Shown: positions 1-38,857 of the stretch, one piece after another
Layout: every line of letters starts with the position of its first letter
Position numbering within the stretch: position 1 is the first letter of the stretch
IMG/VR virus record: IMGVR_UViG_3300038406_000260
Span: 1-52,229 of that record
Source: a virus
Lineage: Duplodnaviria > Caudoviricetes
Strand: one strand, 5' to 3'
Length of the DNA stretch: 52,229 nucleotides
The notes under the pieces: model-generated
Databases searched by the model: none
What the model was told of the DNA's origin: nothing
What the model saw: only the letters and a program-made list of their open reading frames with translations
Translations under genes and position numbers: made by a program

Positions 1-127
1 GGCCGCCGTTGGCCAGCCGCGTCTGAATCTGGGCCAGCTGTGCGGCGGCCTCCTGGATGGCCCGGACGGTGTTGTCCCGCTCGGACCGGACCTCCTGCTC
101 GAAGGCGCGGCGGACCTCCGCCGGTGG
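1..127. repeat. Terminal direct repeat identical to 52103-52229 (circular assembly overlap)
   Basis: GGCCGCCGTTGG...CCGCCGGTGG occurs at both ends; a minus-strand ORF reads through the join. Confidence 0.95.
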
Positions 128-135
128 AAGTGCCA

Positions 136-933
136 TCACCGCCCACCGCCCGCCGGCTCGGCGGTGGGCTCGACATCGGGAATGGGCAACTCATGTTGTG
201 CCCACGCCAGGAAATGCCCGTAGCCCGCCTGAGTCATCCAGTCCGCCACACGCTCCGCACCACTGCATGTGTCGTTACGAGCGCCGAAGTCGTCCGCCGC
301 GCGGCGCCTCTCTTCGGTGGCGAAGTCGCGGAAGTCGCGTGGGGTCATTGCTCGTAACGCGACCCGCTCGTCCTTACGGCGCGGACGCTGGCCGGACTCG
401 ACGGTGCGCGTGATGACGGCGACGGGGTCGTCAGCGACACCCCACCAGCCGAGCACCAGTTGCCCGGTGCGGTGGATCTTCCGCAGTAGCCGGTTGGCCC
501 GGCTGGTAGCCTTCAGGACGGCGCCAGCGCGGCTCATCGCAGCGATCCACCCCTCGCTACTGGACGATTGTCCACTAACGTCGGGCATATCGGGCACGCT
601 GTCCCGATTCCAGCGGCCGTTGCCGCGTCGACCGTCGCCCGCCAGCGTCAGCGCCGTGGCTGCCGCTCGCCGCGGGAGGGTCAGGTGGCGTCGCTGGTTG
701 TTGGCAGACAGCACGTAGCCGACCGGATCGTCGCCTTCGTAGGTCTCGAACGTCGGCTCCACACCGGCGATCCGGCATGCGGCCAGCCGGTTACGACCAT
801 CGAGCACGCGACCGTCGGTGTCCAGCACGATCGGGTGGCGCAACCCGTTGGACCTGATGTCCTCGGCAAGGCGGCGGAGGTCCGGCTCGTCGAGCATCGG
901 CCAGACCGCGGCGGCGGGGTGCGTAGTGGTCAT
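136..933 (-). CDS. ParB/Srx-like N-terminal domain protein
   Basis: LAEDIRSNGLRHPIV...VLDGRNRLAAC...SANNQRRHLT. Confidence 0.75.
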   Translation of the reverse strand: MTTTHPAAAVWPMLDEPDLRRLAEDIRSNGLRHPIVLDTDGRVLDGRNRLAACRIAGVEPTFETYEGDDPVGYVLSANNQRRHLTLPRRAAATALTLAGDGRRGNGRWNRDSVPDMPDVSGQSSSSEGWIAAMSRAGAVLKATSRANRLLRKIHRTGQLVLGWWGVADDPVAVITRTVESGQRPRRKDERVALRAMTPRDFRDFATEERRRAADDFGARNDTCSGAERVADWMTQAGYGHFLAWAQHELPIPDVEPTAEPAGGGR

Positions 934-1247
934 GACGCCGGCTCGGTCCGGGTGTGGCCGGGTACTAGGGGGCCTGTTCCCTGCCCACCGTCGCGGGCAG
1001 GTACTGAGGCCCCGGTTCCCCGGCCCCCGGCGCCCGCCGTCGCGGGCGAGTCTGTGACCGGCGCGCTGTCGAACCAGCTCCGGAGCGCTTCGTGTGACAC
1101 CTCGACGCCGGTCGCCTGGGTCAGCTCGACGGCGAGGGTCCGCCAGCCCATGCCGGCCGAGCGAGCTGAGGACACGTAAGCGGCGAGGGTGGTCCCGCCG
1201 AGGTGGCGTTCAAGCTGCCGGTAAAGCCGGGTAGTTCCTTCTCCCAT
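930..1247 (-). CDS. Cro-like HTH protein
   Basis: Divergent from repressor; WRTLAVEL...VSHEALRSWF helix-turn-helix. Confidence 0.6.
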   Translation of the reverse strand: MGEGTTRLYRQLERHLGGTTLAAYVSSARSAGMGWRTLAVELTQATGVEVSHEALRSWFDSAPVTDSPATAGAGGRGTGASVPARDGGQGTGPLVPGHTRTEPAS

Positions 1248-1373
1248 AGCCAGAAGCTTGACACGGTGAAGCTAGCTTGTCCAGCGCTCGCTATCAGCCG
1301 AACGGCCACCAGTTTGACACCAAGAAGGCGTAGGGGCTTGTCATGACTCCCGGCACCGTGTCAAACTCCTGAC
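1248..1373. promoter_or_regulatory. Divergent lysis/lysogeny switch with inverted operators
   Basis: TTGACACGGTG (1258-1268) is inverted at 1354-1364; AGTTTGACAC (1311-1320) is inverted at 1358-1367. Confidence 0.7.
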
Positions 1374-1883
1374 GTGGACACGACAGAAGTGGCGCAACGC
1401 CAGCCCGAGCGGGTGATCCCTCGGGACACCTTTCGAGCCCGGCTGATGCTGACCCGGCTACACGCCGGCGACCTGACCATCCGGGAGGCGGCAGCCAAGT
1501 GCGGCCTCAACTACGGGTCATGGGCGAACTGGGAGAAGGGGATCAAGCCGCGCGACAAGCTGGAGACCGCCGAAGCCATCAGTGACGGACTCGGCGTGGA
1601 CCGCGACTGGCTGCTGTTCGGTGGCCCACTCGCACCCGAGGACCGCCGCCACGGCCGAGTGGTCAGCCGACCCGGCCGCAGGTTAACGGGAAGCTATCCC
1701 ATCGCCACCACACCGACCACCCCCACCCAGCCGGACAGCCACCACATTCGCCCATCCGTCCGACCCGCCGGCTCCCCCAGAAGCATGAGCCGCGTACCCG
1801 CACCGACCACCGCCAGCATCGGCCGCCCGGCCCGACTCTCCCACCCGCCAGCCCCGGCACCACACAGCGCCACCAGCCGATAA
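1374..1883 (+). CDS. XRE-family immunity repressor with Pro-rich C-terminal tail
   Basis: LTIREAAAKCGLNYGSWANWEKG HTH and LGVDRDWLLFG; directly upstream of integrase. Confidence 0.8.
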   Translation: MDTTEVAQRQPERVIPRDTFRARLMLTRLHAGDLTIREAAAKCGLNYGSWANWEKGIKPRDKLETAEAISDGLGVDRDWLLFGGPLAPEDRRHGRVVSRPGRRLTGSYPIATTPTTPTQPDSHHIRPSVRPAGSPRSMSRVPAPTTASIGRPARLSHPPAPAPHSATSR

Positions 1884-1889
1884 CCCCAG

Positions 1890-2726
1890 ATGACCCCCGA
1901 CCTTGACATCCTCGAGGACTACCTCGCCCACCTCACCAAGATCGGCCGCAGCCCGAAGACGATCCGCACCTACGGCACCGCGTTGAGGGCCGCGCATCGG
2001 GAGCTGCCCTGCGGGGTGCCGACCGCCACCACCGCCGAGCTCGCCCAGTGGCTCGGCCGCTACGACAGCGCCGCCACCCGCCGCACCTACCACGCGGCCA
2101 TCCGCGGGCTCACCTCGTGGGCGGCCGCCGTGGGGCACATCAGCCGGGATGAGGGGGCGTTGGTGCCCCGCCCCCGGGTCCGCCCCGGCCTGCCCAACCC
2201 GTGCTCCGATGAGCAGCTCGCGATCATCCTCGCCCACGCGCCCGAGCCGTACCGCACGTGGTCCATCGTCGCCGCCTACGCGGGCGCCCGGTGTATCGAG
2301 GTCGCCCGGCTGCACCGTGAGCACCTGTCACCCGAACGGGTGACGCTACACGGCAAGGGCGACAAGCCCCGGCGGGTGCCCACCCACCCGCTGGTGTGGG
2401 CCGCGGTCGAGGGCCTGCCGGCCGGTCCGGTGGCGCCGGGGCGGGACCCGTGGCGCGACCGGGTGAGCGCGGAGCTGCGCCGCTGCTACCTCGGGCTGGG
2501 GGTGGACGTGACCGCCCACCAGCTCCGGCACTGGTACGGCACCGCGCTGGTGGCCTCCGGCGCCGGGTTGGAGGAGGTGCGGGAGCTGATGGGCCACGCC
2601 AGCATCTCGACCACGCTCGGGTACGTCCGGGTCGCCTCACCCCGGCTGGCGGCCGCCGTCGGACGGCTGCCGGTCATCGCAGCCGCCGGGGCCGGCCCCG
2701 CCGGTCCCGGCCCGGCGGGTCGGTGA
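1890..2726 (+). CDS. int: Tyrosine recombinase/integrase (XerC-like, no arm-binding domain)
   Basis: AGARCIE (R), HGKGDK (K), HQLRH, LMGHASISTTLGY catalytic motifs. Confidence 0.92.
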   Translation: MTPDLDILEDYLAHLTKIGRSPKTIRTYGTALRAAHRELPCGVPTATTAELAQWLGRYDSAATRRTYHAAIRGLTSWAAAVGHISRDEGALVPRPRVRPGLPNPCSDEQLAIILAHAPEPYRTWSIVAAYAGARCIEVARLHREHLSPERVTLHGKGDKPRRVPTHPLVWAAVEGLPAGPVAPGRDPWRDRVSAELRRCYLGLGVDVTAHQLRHWYGTALVASGAGLEEVRELMGHASISTTLGYVRVASPRLAAAVGRLPVIAAAGAGPAGPGPAGR

Positions 2727-2946
2727 CCACCGCCACCGCCAGCGCCACCGCGGCCAGATGACGCGGCCGGGCCACCACCACCAGCTCCGCCGCCCCGGCG
2801 AGTATCAGCCGCCGGGCGGTCACCGCGTCCGCAGTGACCGCGGCCACCAGCCAGCCACGTGCCCGGCACAGCGCCGCGCACTCATGCTGCCAGCGGAGCA
2901 TCTCGGCACCGTGAGGGATGTAGAGCACAGCACGTAGGGATGGCAT
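2674..2946 (-). CDS. Small protein resembling a resolvase N-terminal fold
   Basis: RAVLY...QHECAALCRARGWLV...AELVVVARPRHL; lacks the R-x-S catalytic motif. Confidence 0.45.
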   Translation of the reverse strand: MPSLRAVLYIPHGAEMLRWQHECAALCRARGWLVAAVTADAVTARRLILAGAAELVVVARPRHLAAVALAVAVVTDPPGRDRRGRPRRLR

Positions 2947-3145
2947 GGGGGCGGGTCTCCTCACTCCCGCCAAGGACGAGGGGTGACCTGTCCAACGATC
3001 CGAGAGCGGCTCGGGTTGCTGTGAGCCGGCTCACGACGGCTAGCCGCCGTCACGGTGACGGGATGATTCCGCCTATCCCTCACTCCCGGCTGGGGTCGCC
3101 TGTCCGGCCGGTGGTGGCGGGCGTCGCGCCGGGGGTGTGGGGTCG

Positions 3146-3172
3146 GGCGCCGGCCCCTCGCGGGCCGGCGCC
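3146..3172. terminator. GC hairpin, probable terminator of the leftward operon
   Basis: GGCGCCGGCCC-CTCGC-GGGCCGGCGCC just past the stop at 3179. Confidence 0.55.
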
Positions 3173-3178
3173 TCCTCC

Positions 3179-3277
3179 CTAGTCGCTGTGCCCTATGTAG
3201 TGAGCGATGTCACCGACGAGGTTCGCTAGGACCGCGAAGCACAGTAGCCAGAACATGAACTTGTAGTACGTCGTCAT
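3179..3277 (-). CDS. Small membrane peptide
   Basis: MTTYYKFMFWLLCFAVLANL; ATGA coupling. Confidence 0.5.
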   Translation of the reverse strand: MTTYYKFMFWLLCFAVLANLVGDIAHYIGHSD

Positions 3278-3684
3278 GGCTTCCACTCCTCCTGGTAGTC
3301 CGGGTGGTAGCCGGCGTAGTGCAGGGCGAGCAGGCGCAGGGTTGGGCAGGGGACCGTCTCGTACTCGCTGCCGTACAGATCGCTCTGGCTGACCAAACAG
3401 CTGAGGCACTTGCCGTCCTCGTATTTGCTGCCGGTCCACACTCTCCCTGGCGAGTGCAGCGCCACTATCCGCCGCTTGGCCGCCACCTCGGCCAGCACCC
3501 GCGCCGGGTCATGCCGGGTGATGTGAGTGGCAACTTCCCCGCGGGCGCCCTCGTTGACGGCGAGACGCACGAACTCCTCTGTAGCACTGTCCTCGACGCC
3601 GTAGGACGTGGGCGCGTCCAGCGCACCCCGTGCCACCGCCTCGTCCTCGGCCAGCCGGGCGAGCAGAAACTCCACCAGCGTCAC
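3274..3684 (-). CDS. DUF6221-like actinophage protein
   Basis: LVEFLLARLAEDE...HDPARVLAEVAAKRRI...CPTLRLLA...HPDYQEEWKP. Confidence 0.75.
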   Translation of the reverse strand: MTLVEFLLARLAEDEAVARGALDAPTSYGVEDSATEEFVRLAVNEGARGEVATHITRHDPARVLAEVAAKRRIVALHSPGRVWTGSKYEDGKCLSCLVSQSDLYGSEYETVPCPTLRLLALHYAGYHPDYQEEWKP

Positions 3685-3914
3685 CGCCCGGCCTCCTTCC
3701 CCCAGTTGGCGCCCTCGTCCTGGCACACCCCCGGCTCCGGATGCGCATCGTCGTAGATGAATGCGACGCTGAGCCCCATCACGAACACCGCGAACACCAG
3801 CACGATCCCGGCCGCGAACTGGTAGACACGCCAAAAACCGGTCCGGCCGGCGCCCAGCCGGGCGCCAAGCCCCAGGCCCGTTAGCAGCAGCAAAGCGATG
3901 ATCAGCCAGTCCAT
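3681..3914 (-). CDS. Small membrane protein
   Basis: Two hydrophobic segments. Confidence 0.6.
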   Translation of the reverse strand: MDWLIIALLLLTGLGLGARLGAGRTGFWRVYQFAAGIVLVFAVFVMGLSVAFIYDDAHPEPGVCQDEGANWGKEAGR

Positions 3915-3917
3915 CAG

Positions 3918-4091
3918 CTACCCGCCTCCCCAGAACGCCAAAACCGCTACGACGATCAACGTGTTGACTACCACGACGATCAGGGCACTACCGGGCTGCA
4001 TCGGCTCTCGCGGCTTGCCGACGCTGAGGACGGCCCCTGCCGCATTGACCGCCAGCAAGGCGACCAGTAGCCACTTCACGAGTTCAGCCAT
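3918..4091 (-). CDS. Small membrane protein
   Basis: MAELVKWLL...; two transmembrane segments; GGAGG RBS. Confidence 0.6.
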   Translation of the reverse strand: MAELVKWLLVALLAVNAAGAVLSVGKPREPMQPGSALIVVVVNTLIVVAVLAFWGGG

Positions 4092-4093
4092 CG

Positions 4094-4309
4094 TCAGCCC
4101 CCCTCCTGTCCGGTGCCGACCCGGAGCACGGTTCCCCGGCCCGTGTCCAGCTCGTGCTGCACACGCTCGTTGTTGACGCCCACGCCTAGGTTGCTGGTGC
4201 TGCGCCATGGCGCGTCCGACCCGGGATAGACCTTGATCCAGGCTTTCCTGTCGGTGGCCACGACGCTGCCCTCGGGCAGCTCGGCGGCGGTTGCTGTGTC
4301 CACGGTCAC
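4094..4309 (-). CDS. Hypothetical protein
   Basis: GTG start coupled to upstream stop; ELPEGSVV...AWIK. Confidence 0.55.
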   Translation of the reverse strand: MTVDTATAAELPEGSVVATDRKAWIKVYPGSDAPWRSTSNLGVGVNNERVQHELDTGRGTVLRVGTGQEGG

Positions 4310-4530
4310 GGCTGGTCCTCCCCCTTCAGGTCGGTACGTGCACCTGGGCCGGGCCGGTTTCGCAACCAGCGATCGAGGGTGCTCTTTCGCCACACGGGTA
4401 CAGCGTGGCCCCCCTTGATCTCACGCCGGTCAGGTTGAGGGGCATGACCGCGGGCGACGTATGGCCGCCACGTGTTGATCGAGACACCGACGTACGCAGC
4501 GGCCGCCGCGTTGCCGATTAGCTCTGTCAT
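4306..4530 (-). CDS. MerR/excisionase-like HTH DNA-binding protein
   Basis: AAAYVGVSINTWRPYVARG.AP.PD...W..STLDRW...RPGPGARTDL. Confidence 0.75.
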   Translation of the reverse strand: MTELIGNAAAAAYVGVSINTWRPYVARGHAPQPDRREIKGGHAVPVWRKSTLDRWLRNRPGPGARTDLKGEDQP

Positions 4531-4541
4531 GCCTTAACCTT

Positions 4542-4630
4542 ACACCGCATGGTGACCTGACACCGCATGGTGTGAAGTAGCTCACATTGCCCCCGATTCC
4601 CTTGCAACCTCGCACCGCTCGGTGTACAGT
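4542..4630. promoter_or_regulatory. Three CACCGCnnGGTG operators and a rightward sigma70-type promoter
   Basis: ACACCGCATGGTG at 4542-4554 and 4560-4572; CACCGCTCGGTG at 4613-4624 lies inside TTGCAA(4602)-17 bp-TACAGT(4625). Confidence 0.72.
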
Positions 4631-4636
4631 TATCTC

Positions 4637-5060
4637 ATAAGCAAGGAAACACCAAAACTCCAAAGAGGGACCTAGGGGAAAACGAGATCAGCTCCCCACC
4701 GCGGAGCAAGCCGCCAGGGTCAACAGAACGGAACAGAAGACAGAGCGAAGCACCTGGTGCTTCGAGGGGGCCGAATCGCTTCCCCGCACTCCTACCGCGA
4801 CACCCGACACGTCGGGCGGCCGCAGGAGGCATATCCGATCGGCCCCCCCGTGGCACCAGGACCACCTGCGGTTACGTGGTCGGCCGGGAGGCCAGGCTAC
4901 GAGAGAGGCACCCGGGAGGGTGCCGAGCACACCGGATCACCGGTCACCCGCTGACGGGCGGGGCGCGCCGAGTCCCCCAGGCCTGACGGGGCCAACCGGG
5001 GGGCGGGAGCCGACACCGGCCGGCCACGTAACCGCAGGACCCACCACCTAGCCTGACAGA
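4637..5060 (+). ncRNA. Candidate large structured non-coding RNA or leader
   Basis: Promoter upstream; 23-bp stem 4865-4887/5016-5038 with nested hairpins; second long stem 4753-4778/4836-4860; A-rich linkers; no convincing CDS. Confidence 0.55.
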
Positions 5061-5082
5061 CCTACCACCGAAGGAGACCGCC

Positions 5083-5457
5083 ATGAGCACAACTACCGAC
5101 ACCACCACCGCGCTGGCCCTGGCCGACGCTTTCGACCGGCACTACACCACCGGCACCCGCCCCGCCCTGCCGGCCGCCATGGCCGAGCTGGGGATCACCG
5201 ACACCGCCGTGGCGTCTGAGCTGCTCACCTGTGGCTCCTCGCTCCAGTACGCCCGGGACCACGGCCTGGACGAGCTGGCGCAGCTGGCGCTGGCGATCAG
5301 CCTGGACGCGGTACGGGCCGACCGACCGGGCGCCTACGCCCAGCTCACCCAGGAGCACGTGGCCGAGTGGGCGCCGGAGGTGGCCGCTGGCGGGGAGACG
5401 ACGGTAGCCGCGCTAACGGAGATGCTGCGCTACGTCACCGGCGACCGTACCGCCTGA
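5083..5457 (+). CDS. Hypothetical protein
   Basis: AAGGAG RBS; phage-like codon usage. Confidence 0.75.
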   Translation: MSTTTDTTTALALADAFDRHYTTGTRPALPAAMAELGITDTAVASELLTCGSSLQYARDHGLDELAQLALAISLDAVRADRPGAYAQLTQEHVAEWAPEVAAGGETTVAALTEMLRYVTGDRTA

Positions 5458-5562
5458 CGCTGCCCGGTCCTCACCCGCTACGGCGGGCGGGGGCCGAGTG
5501 GCGGAACAGACCCGCCACCCGACCAGCCCGGGCTGCAACCCGGGCAGAAACGAGTAGATCAC

Positions 5563-6012
5563 ATGGACATCAACGCACCCACCCAGCCACAGCCGGTAGC
5601 ACCGGTGAGGCACCGGCCGCCGGCGTGGCTGGTGGTCACCTTCACCGGCCTGGCCTCCCTGCTCATCGGCATCGGCATCGGCGGCAGCGGTGAGGGCGCC
5701 GAGGCCACCACCGACACCAGCCCACCTGCGACCGTGGTCACCGTCGCCGACGTCCCGGACGTCTGCCTCGAGGCCCTGGACAACGCCGAGGACCTGATGG
5801 GGTTCAGCGCCGACTTCGCCGACATCGCCGCCGAAATGCCGATGATGATCTACGACGGGATCGAGGCTGGGATGGCCTACGACGCTACAGCGGTCGAGGA
5901 CCTGACCGACAAGCTGAACACGATCACTGCGGACGTGGAAGAGCTGACCGAGCAGATCGGCTCATCTGACTACCGGGACAACGCTGCCCAGTGCCGCGAC
6001 GCGGCCGGCTGA
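5563..6012 (+). CDS. Membrane-anchored exported acidic helical protein
   Basis: N-terminal transmembrane segment, Thr/Pro linker, two Cys. Confidence 0.7.
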   Translation: MDINAPTQPQPVAPVRHRPPAWLVVTFTGLASLLIGIGIGGSGEGAEATTDTSPPATVVTVADVPDVCLEALDNAEDLMGFSADFADIAAEMPMMIYDGIEAGMAYDATAVEDLTDKLNTITADVEELTEQIGSSDYRDNAAQCRDAAG

Positions 6013-6023
6013 CCCAACGACGA

Positions 6024-6058
6024 ATCGGCCCGACCCCGTGATGGGGGGTCGGGCCGAT
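6024..6058. terminator. Bidirectional terminator hairpin
   Basis: ATCGGCCCGACCCC-N7-GGGGTCGGGCCGAT between convergent genes. Confidence 0.75.
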
Positions 6059-6069
6059 CTTGTTGCGGG

Positions 6070-6285
6070 TCAGGGGCGGAAGTCGCCCTTGTCGGCGTTC
6101 GGCGGGCGCGGGTCCTCCGAGTTGTTGCCGTGGCCGGCGGGGTTGACGCACATCCAGCCGCCCTCGCTGGGATTGGCCGCGGCCTCCTGGCCGGGTGGGC
6201 AGGTGATCGGGTCGGCCTGTGCCGGACTGGCCACGGCGCCGACGCCGGCGGCGACCAGCGCCACGACGATGAGCAGCTTACGCAT
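6070..6285 (-). CDS. Small secreted protein
   Basis: Signal peptide ending AQA; two Cys; AGAGGAG RBS. Confidence 0.7.
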   Translation of the reverse strand: MRKLLIVVALVAAGVGAVASPAQADPITCPPGQEAAANPSEGGWMCVNPAGHGNNSEDPRPPNADKGDFRP

Positions 6286-6309
6286 GATGTCTCCTCTGTT
6301 CAGGTCCCA

Positions 6310-6615
6310 TTATCGCGCGCGTGGCCGACGTTTCTCCCATGGCCAGCCCCGCACGAGGTGGACCGGCAGCCACACCCCGACCGCCAACCCGGCCAGGCCC
6401 AGCACGCCGGTCACCACCCAGAAGACCGGCGAGGTGCCGCCGTCCTCTGTGCTCAGCCACTGCCGCAGGCTCTCGGTGTAGCTGCCACCGGACCCGGGGT
6501 CCACGACGGCCACCGTCTCCGGCCCGCCGAACCCGACCACCACCAGCAGTGCGAGCAGCACGGTGAAGATCGGCCACCAGCGGCGAATCCAGCTCGGGTC
6601 GCGGCGTCTGCTCAC
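6310..6615 (-). CDS. Membrane protein
   Basis: Two transmembrane segments; GTGA coupling. Confidence 0.6.
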   Translation of the reverse strand: MSRRRDPSWIRRWWPIFTVLLALLVVVGFGGPETVAVVDPGSGGSYTESLRQWLSTEDGGTSPVFWVVTGVLGLAGLAVGVWLPVHLVRGWPWEKRRPRAR

Positions 6616-6938
6616 GTCGGCACTACCTGGTCGCGCCGTAGGGTCGCCTCCGCCGCGGCGAAGTTCTCGTCCTCGGGGTCGCCGAACCGCCATGGCTCGC
6701 TGCCGTCGCCGAGCAGCTTCCACCCCACAACCTCGCCGTCACGGTACGCCAGCGCCAGCGCCCACCCGCGCGGGTGGAACACGACCCGGTTGATCAGCCA
6801 CAGCAGACCGGAGTCCCGTAGCTCGGAGAACGTCCGCACCGCCTTGTCGTGCCCCGGCATCGGCGCGCCTTCTGAGATCTCGCGGCCCAACTGGTTCTCC
6901 AGCTCTTCGTACGCCTGCCGACTTATGCTCCCGCTCAC
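6612..6938 (-). CDS. Phage hypothetical protein
   Basis: ELRDSGLLWLINRVVFHPRGWALAL; GTG at 6938 coupled to upstream stop. Confidence 0.6.
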   Translation of the reverse strand: MSGSISRQAYEELENQLGREISEGAPMPGHDKAVRTFSELRDSGLLWLINRVVFHPRGWALALAYRDGEVVGWKLLGDGSEPWRFGDPEDENFAAAEATLRRDQVVPT

Positions 6939-7183
6939 CGTGGCGCCTCCCGTTCCTGCCTGGCCACCCGGTCCGCCATGCCCCGGAGCTCGGCCGCGGT
7001 GAGCGTCGGCAGCGACGCCGCGTTCGCCGGCCCCAGGTAGGTCGCGGTCGACGCCGCGACCAGCACGATCAGCCCGGCCACCTCCGGCTCCAGCTCCACC
7101 CCGGCCATCCGTGCAACCGCAACCACCGCGGTGGCGGTCAGCCCGCCCAGGATCGCCGCGACCAGCTTCCGTATCCGTCTCAT
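6935..7183 (-). CDS. Holin-like protein
   Basis: RKLVAAILGG; two transmembrane segments; downstream of lysin. Confidence 0.6.
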   Translation of the reverse strand: MRRIRKLVAAILGGLTATAVVAVARMAGVELEPEVAGLIVLVAASTATYLGPANAASLPTLTAAELRGMADRVARQEREAPR

Positions 7184-33194: not shown

Positions 33195-33599
33195 CTACCT
33201 AGTGATGCCCGTCGATGCGTGTCGGCCCCACCCCCCGGGGGGTGCCCACCCTGACCTGTCCTTCTTGCGTGCGTTGCATGGTCGACATAGGACAGCGAGT
33301 GGGCCTGCCTCCGCGCCTCCGGCTGCGACAGCGACGATGTGATCGGCGGTGAGGTCCGTGGCGGGGTGGGGTGACCTTCCCCAGCCGGGGCACCAGTTAC
33401 CGACCCGCCCCCGGTGTTGAGCGACCGCCTCAGCGCGGCGTCGAGTCTCGGCGCTGGTGATCACCGGCTTGGCGACAGCGCAGCGCGGGCAGCGGCCGGA
33501 CTGCCGCAGCCGCCTACCCCGGCGCTTGGCCACCCCCTTGTCGACGAGGCCCCCGCAGTCGAGACACGGCACCATGGGCATTTGTCGCCTATCCGACAC
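33195..33599 (-). CDS. Packaging-associated HNH endonuclease
   Basis: TADHIVAVAAGG....LAVLCRPCNARK; next to terS. Confidence 0.85.
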   Translation of the reverse strand: MSDRRQMPMVPCLDCGGLVDKGVAKRRGRRLRQSGRCPRCAVAKPVITSAETRRRAEAVAQHRGRVGNWCPGWGRSPHPATDLTADHIVAVAAGGAEAGPLAVLCRPCNARKKDRSGWAPPGGWGRHASTGITR

Positions 33600-36687: not shown

Positions 36688-37020
36688 TCAGCCGGCATCG
36701 TCGGCCTCCCCGTCCTCCAGCCGGGCCACCTCGGCGGCCAGCCGCTCACGCTTGGCGCGCAGCTTCTCGGCACCGGTGTGGGCGAGCATCAGCAGCAGCG
36801 GCAGGGCCAGCGGCCAGGCGGCGACGCAGGCGATGCCGGTCCACAGGGCGCGGGCGAAGGCGGCCGTCCACCCATCCTGGATCGTGTACCGGGCCCCGTA
36901 CTGGTCCTTCTTTTCGACCGGCCCGCGGCGTGGCTGGTCGCCGAGGATCCGCACGAACGCAGCCCGGCCGATGACAGCGCCGAGCAGCAGCCACCCCCAG
37001 ATGCTCAGCAGCGGGATCAT
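36688..37020 (-). CDS. Membrane protein
   Basis: Two transmembrane segments; AWPL motif. Confidence 0.55.
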   Translation of the reverse strand: MIPLLSIWGWLLLGAVIGRAAFVRILGDQPRRGPVEKKDQYGARYTIQDGWTAAFARALWTGIACVAAWPLALPLLLMLAHTGAEKLRAKRERLAAEVARLEDGEADDAG

Positions 37021-37766
37021 GCCGACTCCTCTCCGGCTGGGGCCGGCTCCGGGGTGCCGGGGACGGGGCGGACCTTGAGGAGGTCTTGGCAGTGTGCCTT
37101 CATTGCTTCCCTAGCGCGAGTCTGACTCTTTCCGTGCGGGGCGAAGACAAGTGGGCATCCGCAGGAGCATTGATATTCCTTGGCGGTGACGCGTACAAGG
37201 CGGTGACCCCTGACCCCACGACCGACCAGGGGAAGCCCCCTGGCTACCGGTGACACCCTGCCAAGGGCCGACTGCTCGCCCGGACGCGGAAAGTTCAGGG
37301 CAGCGTAGTCACCGAAGTAGCGGCGCGCTGCATCGTCGTAGGCGAGTGCTGCATCCTCCTCCGACATGAAGCGGCCAAGCTTGATCTGCTTCCCCTGCGG
37401 GTAAATCCTCGCTAGCCACCTAAGCCTCGACGTGTCCCAAACAACGCCCTTGTAGCGAGATGTTCCCTTGGTTTTTTGGCGATTGGCTTGGTTCTGTGAC
37501 TCAGTAGCAGGTCGCAAGTTGCAGCGCCGGTTGTCCAAGCCGTTGCCGTTGATGTGGTCAACCCGTGGCCAACCGGTCAAGAAGGTGTGCACGAACTGGC
37601 CTCGCTCTCGCACGGAATCCACATCAGGTTCTAGGAAGCGTCGTCGTGCGTAATAGGTTTCCCGCTTCCCCGCAGGACGCCACCTGAACTGGGAGACAGC
37701 TTCCGCATCGGCATCATCGACTAGCAGAAACAGACCATGATGCAGTGGGATTCGCACGACCGTCAC
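37017..37766 (-). CDS. HNH-AP2 homing endonuclease
   Basis: VDHINGNGLDNRRCNLR; SRYKGV.W...W.ARI...LGRF..EEDAALAYD; lower GC. Confidence 0.88.
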   Translation of the reverse strand: MTVVRIPLHHGLFLLVDDADAEAVSQFRWRPAGKRETYYARRRFLEPDVDSVRERGQFVHTFLTGWPRVDHINGNGLDNRRCNLRPATESQNQANRQKTKGTSRYKGVVWDTSRLRWLARIYPQGKQIKLGRFMSEEDAALAYDDAARRYFGDYAALNFPRPGEQSALGRVSPVARGLPLVGRGVRGHRLVRVTAKEYQCSCGCPLVFAPHGKSQTRAREAMKAHCQDLLKVRPVPGTPEPAPAGEESA

Positions 37767-38857
37767 CTGACATCTCCAATACTGCGGGTGCCGGCGCGGA
37801 TCTCGGCAGCGATACGGCACAGGTCCCCGGCCAACTCGGTCTGGCTCCAGCGGGACGCCAGGCCGGCGCCGAAGACCAGCGCGGCGGCTGCGGCGTGCCG
37901 GTCCCGGGCCTCCATGTCCCCGGCGGCCCGCTCCCACAGGTCGGCGGCCCGGCGGGCGGTGGCCAGCTCGGCGGCCTGCTCGGCATGGTCGGCAGCCCAC
38001 CTGTGGTTCGCCTCCACCGCCTCAGCCAGCTCGGCGTCCCGGCGGGCCAGCTCGGCGGCCTCCCGGTCCCACCCGGCCCCGGCGGCGGCAGCAGCCCCGC
38101 GGGTGGTGGCCAACTCGGCGCGGAGCCGCCGCACCGAGTCGCTGCGCTGCCGGTCCCGTTCAGCCAGCGCGTCGTAGAGCTGGGTGCTGCGGGCATCCAG
38201 CGCCCCGGCGTACCGGCCCAGGTCCTGAGCGGCAGCGGCGGCGGTGCGTTGCCCTGACGGCTCGTCCAGCTTCACCCCGGACGCCTCCACCCGCGGCGGC
38301 GGCGGGGCGGTCACCCCGTGCGGGCCACGCTCGAAGGCGGCCAGCACGTCGGCGACCGGCTCGTCTGGCTCCGGCTGGTCGGCGTGTAGCAGGTCATCGG
38401 CCGCGCACGGGTCCGGGCAGTCCAGCCGCGAGCAGGTGACATGCCCGGCCTCAGCCAGGAACAGCGAGCTGCCCCGGCAGGCCGGGCAGCGGCCGGCGAC
38501 GCGTGGGAAGCCGACGCCGACACCGTGGGATGCCGTGGTCGGCTGCGGCTTGGGCTGGTCCGCCGGCTTGCTCGGTGGCGGTGGTGGTGGCTGGTGGGTG
38601 GTCATCGGGTGGCCTCCAGGGTGCCCGGAGCGGGTGAGGCGGGGTGGTCGTAGGTGGATGGGCGCCAGCGTGTCCGGGTCAAGCGACCGGACATGCATCC
38701 ACCCGCCGGCGTCGCCATCCAGCGGCATGCCGTACATGACGCGGCTGCGACAGGTGCGGCAGTTGGCGAGGTCGCCAGGCTGGCCGAGGTTCAGGTAGTC
38801 GCCGGTGGGCCGGTTGGTCTGGTCCAGGTGGGCGAGGATGTCGTACTCGCTGGTCAT
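37763..38857 (-). CDS. Mosaic hypothetical protein with Zn-finger and coiled-coil parts
   Basis: GRCPAC...LFL...HVTCSRLDCPDP; may have an internal start. Confidence 0.5.
   Translation of the reverse strand: MTSEYDILAHLDQTNRPTGDYLNLGQPGDLANCRTCRSRVMYGMPLDGDAGGWMHVRSLDPDTLAPIHLRPPRLTRSGHPGGHPMTTHQPPPPPPSKPADQPKPQPTTASHGVGVGFPRVAGRCPACRGSSLFLAEAGHVTCSRLDCPDPCAADDLLHADQPEPDEPVADVLAAFERGPHGVTAPPPPRVEASGVKLDEPSGQRTAAAAAQDLGRYAGALDARSTQLYDALAERDRQRSDSVRRLRAELATTRGAAAAAGAGWDREAAELARRDAELAEAVEANHRWAADHAEQAAELATARRAADLWERAAGDMEARDRHAAAAALVFGAGLASRWSQTELAGDLCRIAAEIRAGTRSIGDVR

Follow-up and report, generated by a model that had tools for sequence, protein, structure and literature searches.

A probable modular structured leader RNA in an uncultured actinophage and its relatives

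The region at positions 4637-5082 of an uncultured phage genome carries a member of a small, previously uncatalogued family of modular structured RNAs. The region is non-coding and highly folded, spans roughly 440 bases and is read here, from the sequence, as a putative plus strand transcript. Leaders of the family are 250-490 nt long and share an architecture of an A-rich 5′ end, a conserved first domain (D1) and then one or two large domains. The element is found in 16 contigs counting the window (the window being the whole 52,229-bp stretch of DNA that was analysed), of which 15 are viral contigs and one is a metagenome contig. No description of this RNA was found in the literature. It is very probable that this is a real family of structured plus strand leader RNAs. 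As to function, the reading favoured here, at a probability of about 45%, is that the region would be the 5′ leader of a transcript from a regulated promoter, in which the RNA itself is the functional product and the modules are cut by RNase III.

The window represents an entire viral contig; it has terminal repeats and a G+C content of about 70%. The phage is a temperate, siphovirus-like, uncultured actinophage infecting a high-GC bacterium. Its minus strand carries, reading from about 33 kb to about 6 kb, the genes of both terminase subunits (small and large), the portal, the capsid, the tape measure and the tail and lysis proteins. The same strand encodes RecT, a YqaJ-like recombinase, a primase-helicase and WhiB at 39-47 kb. 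As the portal is only about 41% identical to the portals of Gordonia phages, the phage has no close cultured relative. On the plus strand, a repressor-like HTH gene (1374-1883) is directly followed, 6 bases downstream, by the gene for a tyrosine recombinase of 278 aa (1890-2726). This recombinase is short and Xer-like, without an arm-binding N-terminal domain. The stretch at 2727-3273 is GC-rich with no clear gene, and attP was not located. A weak ParB-like gene lies at 136-933. An HNH endonuclease with an AP2 DNA-binding domain is encoded at 37017-38000, and a second HNH gene is located beside the terminase genes (33195-33599). The leader locus itself is flanked on one side by the end of the lysis/tail block and on the other by a short leftward operon headed by a 74-aa HTH gene (4306-4530).

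A first-pass annotation, made from the sequence letters, had described the region as a multi-domain structured element with no credible coding sequence, and both parts of this description are borne out. There is no GC3 signal in the window sequence of the region, as no stop-to-stop frame of at least 60 codons with GC3 above 0.82 overlaps 4531-5031, and the homologues contain frame-breaking indels. A conserved reading frame is ruled out by indels of 1-2 nt inside the third domain (D3) of these homologues. The helices that the annotation had named are all present at the positions it gave, and the multi-domain arrangement is supported by the fold and by compensatory changes in homologues. The plus strand has a minimum free energy (MFE) of -212.7 kcal/mol against -179.7 ± 5.5 for shuffled controls (z -6.0), with 0 of 100 shuffles folding as well. 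The minus strand of the same region reaches a z of -3.3. The corresponding values for three relatives are -7.2 (L004), -3.3 (L012) and -4.2 (L030). The RNA family, which the annotation did not recognise, is equally unfamiliar to Rfam 15, with 0 matches at the gathering threshold across the whole window. At E ≤ 10, four matches are obtained in 4400-5300, all with E ≥ 4.9 and none on the plus strand within 4637-5082. No tRNA or tmRNA was found in the window by ARAGORN.

The leader starts with an A-rich segment (4637-4668) that is unpaired in the centroid fold and is A-rich in all members. D1 (4669-4721, about 55 nt) consists of a closing helix (GACC 4669-4672 with GGTC 4718-4721) round two hairpins (GGGGA 4675-4679 with TCCCC 4693-4697, and GCGG 4701-4704 with CCGC 4711-4714), the first of which has the loop AAACGAGAnnAGC. 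A covariance model of D1, R1, scores 71.8 bits in the window, where the next best match is 13.1 bits; D1 is therefore single-copy. The same model matches 11 other contigs at 67.8-91.2 bits, and compensatory changes are observed in all three helices of D1.

The second domain (D2, 4753-4860) has a branched interior and a long interrupted closing helix, whose arms lie at 4753-4774 and 4839-4860. The linker between D1 and D2 contains a repeat of part of the 3′ arm of D2. The linker and the D2 5′ arm also contain a palindrome, predicted to form an alternative hairpin (4746-4764) that is mutually exclusive with the D2 closing helix. This hairpin is the MFE structure of the segment in 7 of the 12 members having the D2 arm.

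D3 (4865-5038) is enclosed by a 23-bp closing helix (4865-4887 with 5016-5038) and contains four hairpins, including a GNRA-type hairpin at 4907-4924; CTGACGGG occurs twice. The 23-nt arms are complementary at 22 of 23 positions (96%), the exception being a T·G that gives a G·U pair on the plus strand. The claim that this G·U pair is the only irregularity of the stem holds for the window but fails for the family, since one or two A·C/C·A mismatches on the plus strand are found in seven of the eight type-A sequences. In the middle of the stem (4874-4877 with 5026-5029) both arms of the window carry the self-complementary ACGT. Most relatives have ACGC on one or both of these arms, which results in two symmetric A·C mismatches three bp apart. 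One hairpin loop of D3 (4950-4965; alignment columns 357-372) reads TGACGG in some members and CCGTCA in others with the stem unchanged, a difference suggestive of a small inversion through the inverted repeat that forms the stem. The leader ends in a C/A-rich linker (5039-5082) which contains the ribosome-binding site GAAGGAG (5070-5076).

Relatives were searched with the flanking proteins and four DNA patterns. Chance matches in coding regions were dropped, these being L014, L020 and L022 (3 of 11 stretches), L024, and L031-L036 with L038 (7 of 19 stretches). The collection of cultured phages contains no DNA match for the region and no match for the first downstream (cargo) ORF. Across 185,579 species genomes, the D1 pattern has 0 matches and an invariant 22-mer of D3 has one chance match, at an unrelated intergenic site; the first cargo ORF has no relative in the host species genomes. 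One close relative, L011, has the same type of promoter and operator with the leader RNA absent. At L011:2880-2900 (minus strand), its ORF starts within a few bases of the -10, in the manner of a leaderless mRNA. Another locus, L019, shows a clean deletion of D1 and the 5′ half of D2 (L019:400-480) with D3 intact. From these two loci, the leader is dispensable for the phage backbone, which weighs against the favoured reading. A full type-B leader is also present in G002 (L043, L026), a contig of 94.9 kb with terminal repeats and no integrase match, unlike the genomes of about 46-52 kb.

D1 is present in 12 of the 16 contigs, a diverged form of the same shape (D1′) in three, and in one it is deleted. 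Nine contigs carry the pair D2A and D3A after D1 (one with a truncated D2) and five carry D2B and D3B, while L012 has a single type-C domain and L030 a single type-D domain. The six module types are unrelated or distantly related, and each keeps a closing helix of 18-26 bp. The length of this helix is 23 bp for the window, 24-26 bp for type B, 18 bp for L012 and 19+5 bp for L030. D3A, D3B, C and D have no recognisable sequence in common and occupy the same slot in different phages. Both D1 and D1′ are found with A and with B pairs; therefore, the modules recombine.

The helices are maintained by compensatory changes in homologues, as the first-pass annotation would predict. The type-A alignment (8 sequences, RNAalifold) has 100 consensus pairs with 96.7% of cells paired, and 11 pairs are changed on both sides. 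None of 500 column shuffles reaches the observed percentage paired, the pairs or cells changed on both sides, or the covariation score, whereas the count of further pair types is not above the shuffles (254/500). When the partners are slid by 1-3 columns, only 34-48% are paired. By domain, the double changes comprise nine pairs in D2, two in D1 and none in D3. The D2 helices (helices 3-5) account for 34 pairs, nine of them changed on both sides, with 90.6-100% of cells paired. The changes seen in D3 of type A are one-sided, to G·U, and lie inside the domain. The lack of double changes in D3 is due to its mean pairwise identity of 94% (8 contigs), compared with 82% for D2 and 88% for the cargo gene. 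The D3 fold is supported by thermodynamics and by comparison with the equivalent stems in the other module types. The type-B alignment (5 sequences) has 121 pairs, six with double changes, and one position of its long stem is C-G, U·G or U-A in different members. As the homologues are all close relatives from similar samples, these covariation counts represent few events.

The distribution of wobble pairs favours the plus strand, except in the closing stem of type-A D3. D2 has seven wobble pairs when read on the plus strand and two on the minus strand. Inside D3 the numbers are 23 and 2, with 16 of the 23 contributed by two invariant pairs. In the long stem of type B there are 7 U·G against 1 C·A. 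The 23-bp D3 stem of type A has A·C/C·A at two central positions, with 10 cells that would be wobbles on the minus strand against 1 on the plus strand, and this stem alone gives no support for the plus strand.

The leader was originally placed behind a near-consensus promoter. A promoter-like site is present on the plus strand, TTGCAA (4602-4607) and TACAGT (4625-4630) separated by 17 nt, with a predicted start near 4637, but it agrees with the sigma-70 consensus at 8 of 12 positions and is not near-consensus. A strict sigma-70 scan detected no promoter in 500-7000, and the case for a promoter is comparative. Of 17 related loci, 11 have the strict pattern TTGnnn-16..18-TAnnnT in the 60 nt upstream, compared with 0.12% of random 65-nt windows; two of these 11 (L009, L037) probably match at something other than the real -10. 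By eye, six loci (L005, L006, L008, L009, L019, L037) have TTGTGT-17-CATACT and L013 has TTGCAC-16-TACGCT, with no clear assignment for L021. Several different promoter-like sequences, unrelated to one another, hold the same upstream position across the members, a further pointer to the plus strand.

The leader had been grouped with a divergent HTH gene and two downstream genes, and this arrangement is supported, as co-oriented ORFs follow directly downstream. The divergent gene (4306-4530, minus strand) encodes a 74-aa protein which is identified by PHROG matches as an excisionase/MerR-like DNA-binding protein (phrog_597, E 4.7e-16; phrog_66, E 6e-5); its match to Pfam HTH_17 is below the cut-off. 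Three operator-like palindromes of the form CACCGnnnGGTG are located at 4543-4554, 4561-4572 and 4613-4624, the third lying within the promoter spacer. The pattern has five matches in the 52-kb window against a chance expectation of 2.2 for the whole window, four of them in this intergenic region (one site counted on both strands) and one elsewhere in the genome. The same type of motif is found in L007, L011 and L012. The divergent HTH protein is the obvious candidate to bind these palindromes.

Every member has a ribosome-binding site and a plus strand ORF within 15-110 nt 3′ of the element. The first cargo ORF of the window (5083-5457, plus strand, GC3 0.91) encodes an orphan protein of 124 aa with only nine close relatives, itself counted, among 5.8 billion proteins. 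It has no match in Pfam or PADLOC, and none of the five PDB fold matches listed reaches E ≤ 0.001. The AlphaFold model is mediocre (pLDDT 67) and includes a helix-turn-helix-like stretch. The second ORF (5563-6012, plus strand, GC3 0.89) encodes 149 aa with one hydrophobic segment and matches phrog_34894, of unknown function (E 6.8e-7). The downstream cargo differs between phages and consists entirely of orphans, with 0 of 26 proteins across the members above the Pfam cut-off (one sub-threshold match) and 0 of 27 in PADLOC. No terminator-like site was found on the plus strand in 4637-7000.

Masking of the ribosome-binding site, or antisense control of the start region, is not supported. Duplexes between the leader and the -25..+12 region have z values of -0.97 to +1.33 in all 12 members (200 shuffles per member), and the ribosome-binding site of the cargo is free, not sequestered by the leader. 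A recurring intercistronic element, in which a CTGGCAGAC...ACCACC tract comes after a GC hairpin, occurs just 5′ of the ribosome-binding sites of several cargo ORFs (L004:2900-2970, L011 at about 2580-2650 on the minus strand, L028 and L037). Weaker elements of the CTGGCAGAC type are seen in the window at 5040-5070 and 5520-5562.

Under the favoured reading, a plus strand transcript would run from the regulated promoter (-10 at 4625-4630) into the accessory-gene cassette at 5083-6012. Host RNase III would cut the two-turn closing helices, releasing D2 and D3 as stable small RNAs and trimming the cargo mRNA to a short, open 5′ end. D1 may serve as a common handle, for example a protein-binding or folding element. 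Excision is favoured because the two-turn closing helix is the one feature common to all of the unrelated modules. RNase III usually acts on helices of at least some 20 bp, and the rRNAs that it excises are flanked by long stems. The window stem, at 23 bp, is a continuous or near-continuous helix of this length. Taken on its own, the RNase III mechanism, for which helix length is the evidence, is doubtful. An extension of the favoured reading, in which the leader would be an array of exchangeable RNA cassettes excised by RNase III and acting in trans as the RNA counterpart of moron genes, is unlikely. The released RNAs might then target host defence or gene expression of the host, for example as decoys or regulators, and the phages would exchange modules through recombination at the conserved D1 handle and in the stems.

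A purely cis-acting leader, where the folded 5′ UTR controls or protects the cargo operon with no trans-acting RNAs, is the most serious competitor to processing by excision, though rather unlikely in itself. It could take the form of put-type antitermination by D1, of binding of an HTH protein, from the operon or from a neighbouring gene, to the RNA in the manner of Aca1/Aca2, or of dense structure that protects a long untranslated leader from Rho and RNases. The position of the element fits such a role, as in every case a promoter-like site precedes it, the first cargo ORF follows and no terminator-like site intervenes. The start of the two-hairpin D1 about 30 nt past the predicted start and the overlap of operator-like palindromes with the promoter fit as well. 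In 7 of 12 members the linker hairpin and the D2 closing helix are in competition, as in switches. Binding of 5′ UTR hairpins by Aca proteins has been reported, in the portion of PMC13551039 available, and the first cargo protein has a helix-turn-helix-like stretch in its pLDDT 67 model, although it lacks both a Pfam HTH match and a fold match. However, the ribosome-binding site is unmasked, and antitermination has little to act on since D1 is single-copy, the genes downstream are just two short ones and a terminator-like site is lacking. A length of 250-490 nt and swappable modules also far exceed the known leader operators, the Aca motifs of that portion lying within about 100 nt. It is quite improbable that the leader gives rise to an immunity RNA of the P1 c4 / P4 CI type, which would pair downstream to shut off the cargo (e.g. 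an antirepressor), with module differences setting heteroimmunity. The promoter-proximal leader, small orphan ORFs, operators in the regulatory region, modules that differ among otherwise related phages and the linker repeat of part of the D2 3′ arm are all in keeping with it. Against this, Rfam C4 has no match even at E ≤ 10, the leader is no more complementary to the translation start region than shuffled controls in any of the 12 members, and the cargo has no recognisable antirepressor domain.

An RNA-primed origin of prophage replication, as in parABS Cluster A mycobacteriophages or ColE1 RNA II, is very improbable. The predicted RNA is alike in size and place to the mycobacteriophage origin, as far as the consulted part of PMC7157519 describes it: it would be promoter-driven, is non-coding and about 400 nt long, and has the tail/lysis genes on one side and the lysogeny cassette on the other. 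The weak ParB-like gene at 136-933, and the presence of the RNA in the 95-kb G002 with no integrase match, point the same way. Yet a ParA-type ATPase (AAA_31) is found in none of five family genomes and an integrase in four of the five; the RNA leads straight into translated ORFs, L011 does without it, and no cultured phage has a sequence match. Finally, an element acting at the DNA level, whether an attP/recombination site, a MITE or a cruciform-forming protein-binding site, is extremely improbable. D3 is bounded by 23-bp inverted repeats, has a MITE-like size of about 174 bp and lies with an integrase within 2 kb and an adjoining excisionase-like gene, and the mismatches of the type-A stem would be wobbles on the other strand. 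The terminal inverted repeats (22/23) are those of a MITE, but dispersed copies are lacking, as the phage has one copy and every D3 of the viral collection occupies the one slot that follows D2. The 22-mer has its single chance match, and the D1 pattern none, among 185,579 species genomes. An attP overlapping a tRNA or tmRNA is not indicated either, with no tRNA or tRNA-like core and no tRNA/tmRNA fragment detected by ARAGORN or Rfam. Pairing is also kept through G·U intermediates and double changes, for which a site acting as DNA duplex has no need. It is this combination of single copy, constant slot, absence from genomes and mode of pairing that makes a DNA site or MITE unlikely.

Large structured non-coding RNAs are rare, and several of those known are found in phages without a known function. 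The plan described here is unusual, with one conserved handle and swappable domains that are each closed by a two-turn helix, and covariation supports part of it. Should the modules be excised and function as RNAs, phages would trade RNA parts like small accessory genes. If the trans-acting cassette extension is true, the leader would represent a new class of large modular phage non-coding RNA. The unit is compact, with promoter, leader and first ORF taking up about 600 bp. The immediate reach is limited, as the family is small (16 contigs) and from uncultured phages.

RNase III processing stems are known from rRNA precursors and from the leaders of phage T7 and lambda N. Similar to these, the helices described here are about two turns long and enclose a folded RNA or form part of a phage 5′ leader. 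They differ in that the interiors are unknown RNAs rather than rRNA, the type-A stems have A·C mismatches and cleavage is a prediction. The HK022 put RNA is a two-hairpin antiterminator located just past the early promoter, with copies at each early operon, and allows terminators to be read through. D1 resembles it in shape only, with two hairpins about 30 nt past the predicted start, and unlike put it is single-copy with no terminator-like site on the plus strand in 4637-7000. The immunity RNAs of P1 c4 and P4 CI (Rfam C4) are derived from a leader. Likewise, a functional RNA would here come from the leader of an operon of small phage genes, but there is neither an Rfam match nor complementarity to a target at the start region.

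Among phage-associated RNAs, the ROOL, GOLLD and OLE-like RNAs, as presented in the part of bioRxiv 10.1101/2024.12.08.627333 consulted, are also long, multi-domain and non-coding, occur in phage or prophage DNA and are of unknown function. The present leader differs from these in being fused to ORFs, modular, restricted to 16 contigs and without an Rfam match. In anti-CRISPR operons, the 5′ UTR motifs bound by Aca1/Aca2 are described, in the text available of PMC13551039, as one or two hairpins within about 100 nt, and Aca2 blocks the ribosome-binding site. Both systems combine inverted-repeat operators at the promoter with a structured 5′ UTR, followed by small orphan genes that vary. In contrast to the Aca operons of that text, the leader is 250-490 nt long, its ribosome-binding site is free and Pfam, the resource used, identifies no Aca family.

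The parABS mycobacteriophages of Cluster A have a transcribed non-coding ori region of 400-500 bp between the tail genes and the lysogeny cassette, according to the sections seen of Wetzel et al. 2020 (PMC7157519). The size and position of the leader fit this RNA-based origin, its transcription being predicted. The origins covered in those sections adjoin parABS in integrase-less phages, whereas here ParA is found in 0 of 5 genomes and an integrase in 4 of 5, and there is no sequence similarity. Fremin et al. 2023 (PMC10690425) report, in the part consulted, 8,495 structured-RNA candidates of 29-151 nt from IMG/VR, found by covariation in intergenic regions. These candidates come from the same data source and are backed by the same kind of evidence as the leader family but are shorter, and that catalogue, judged from this part, could include D1 or part of D2.
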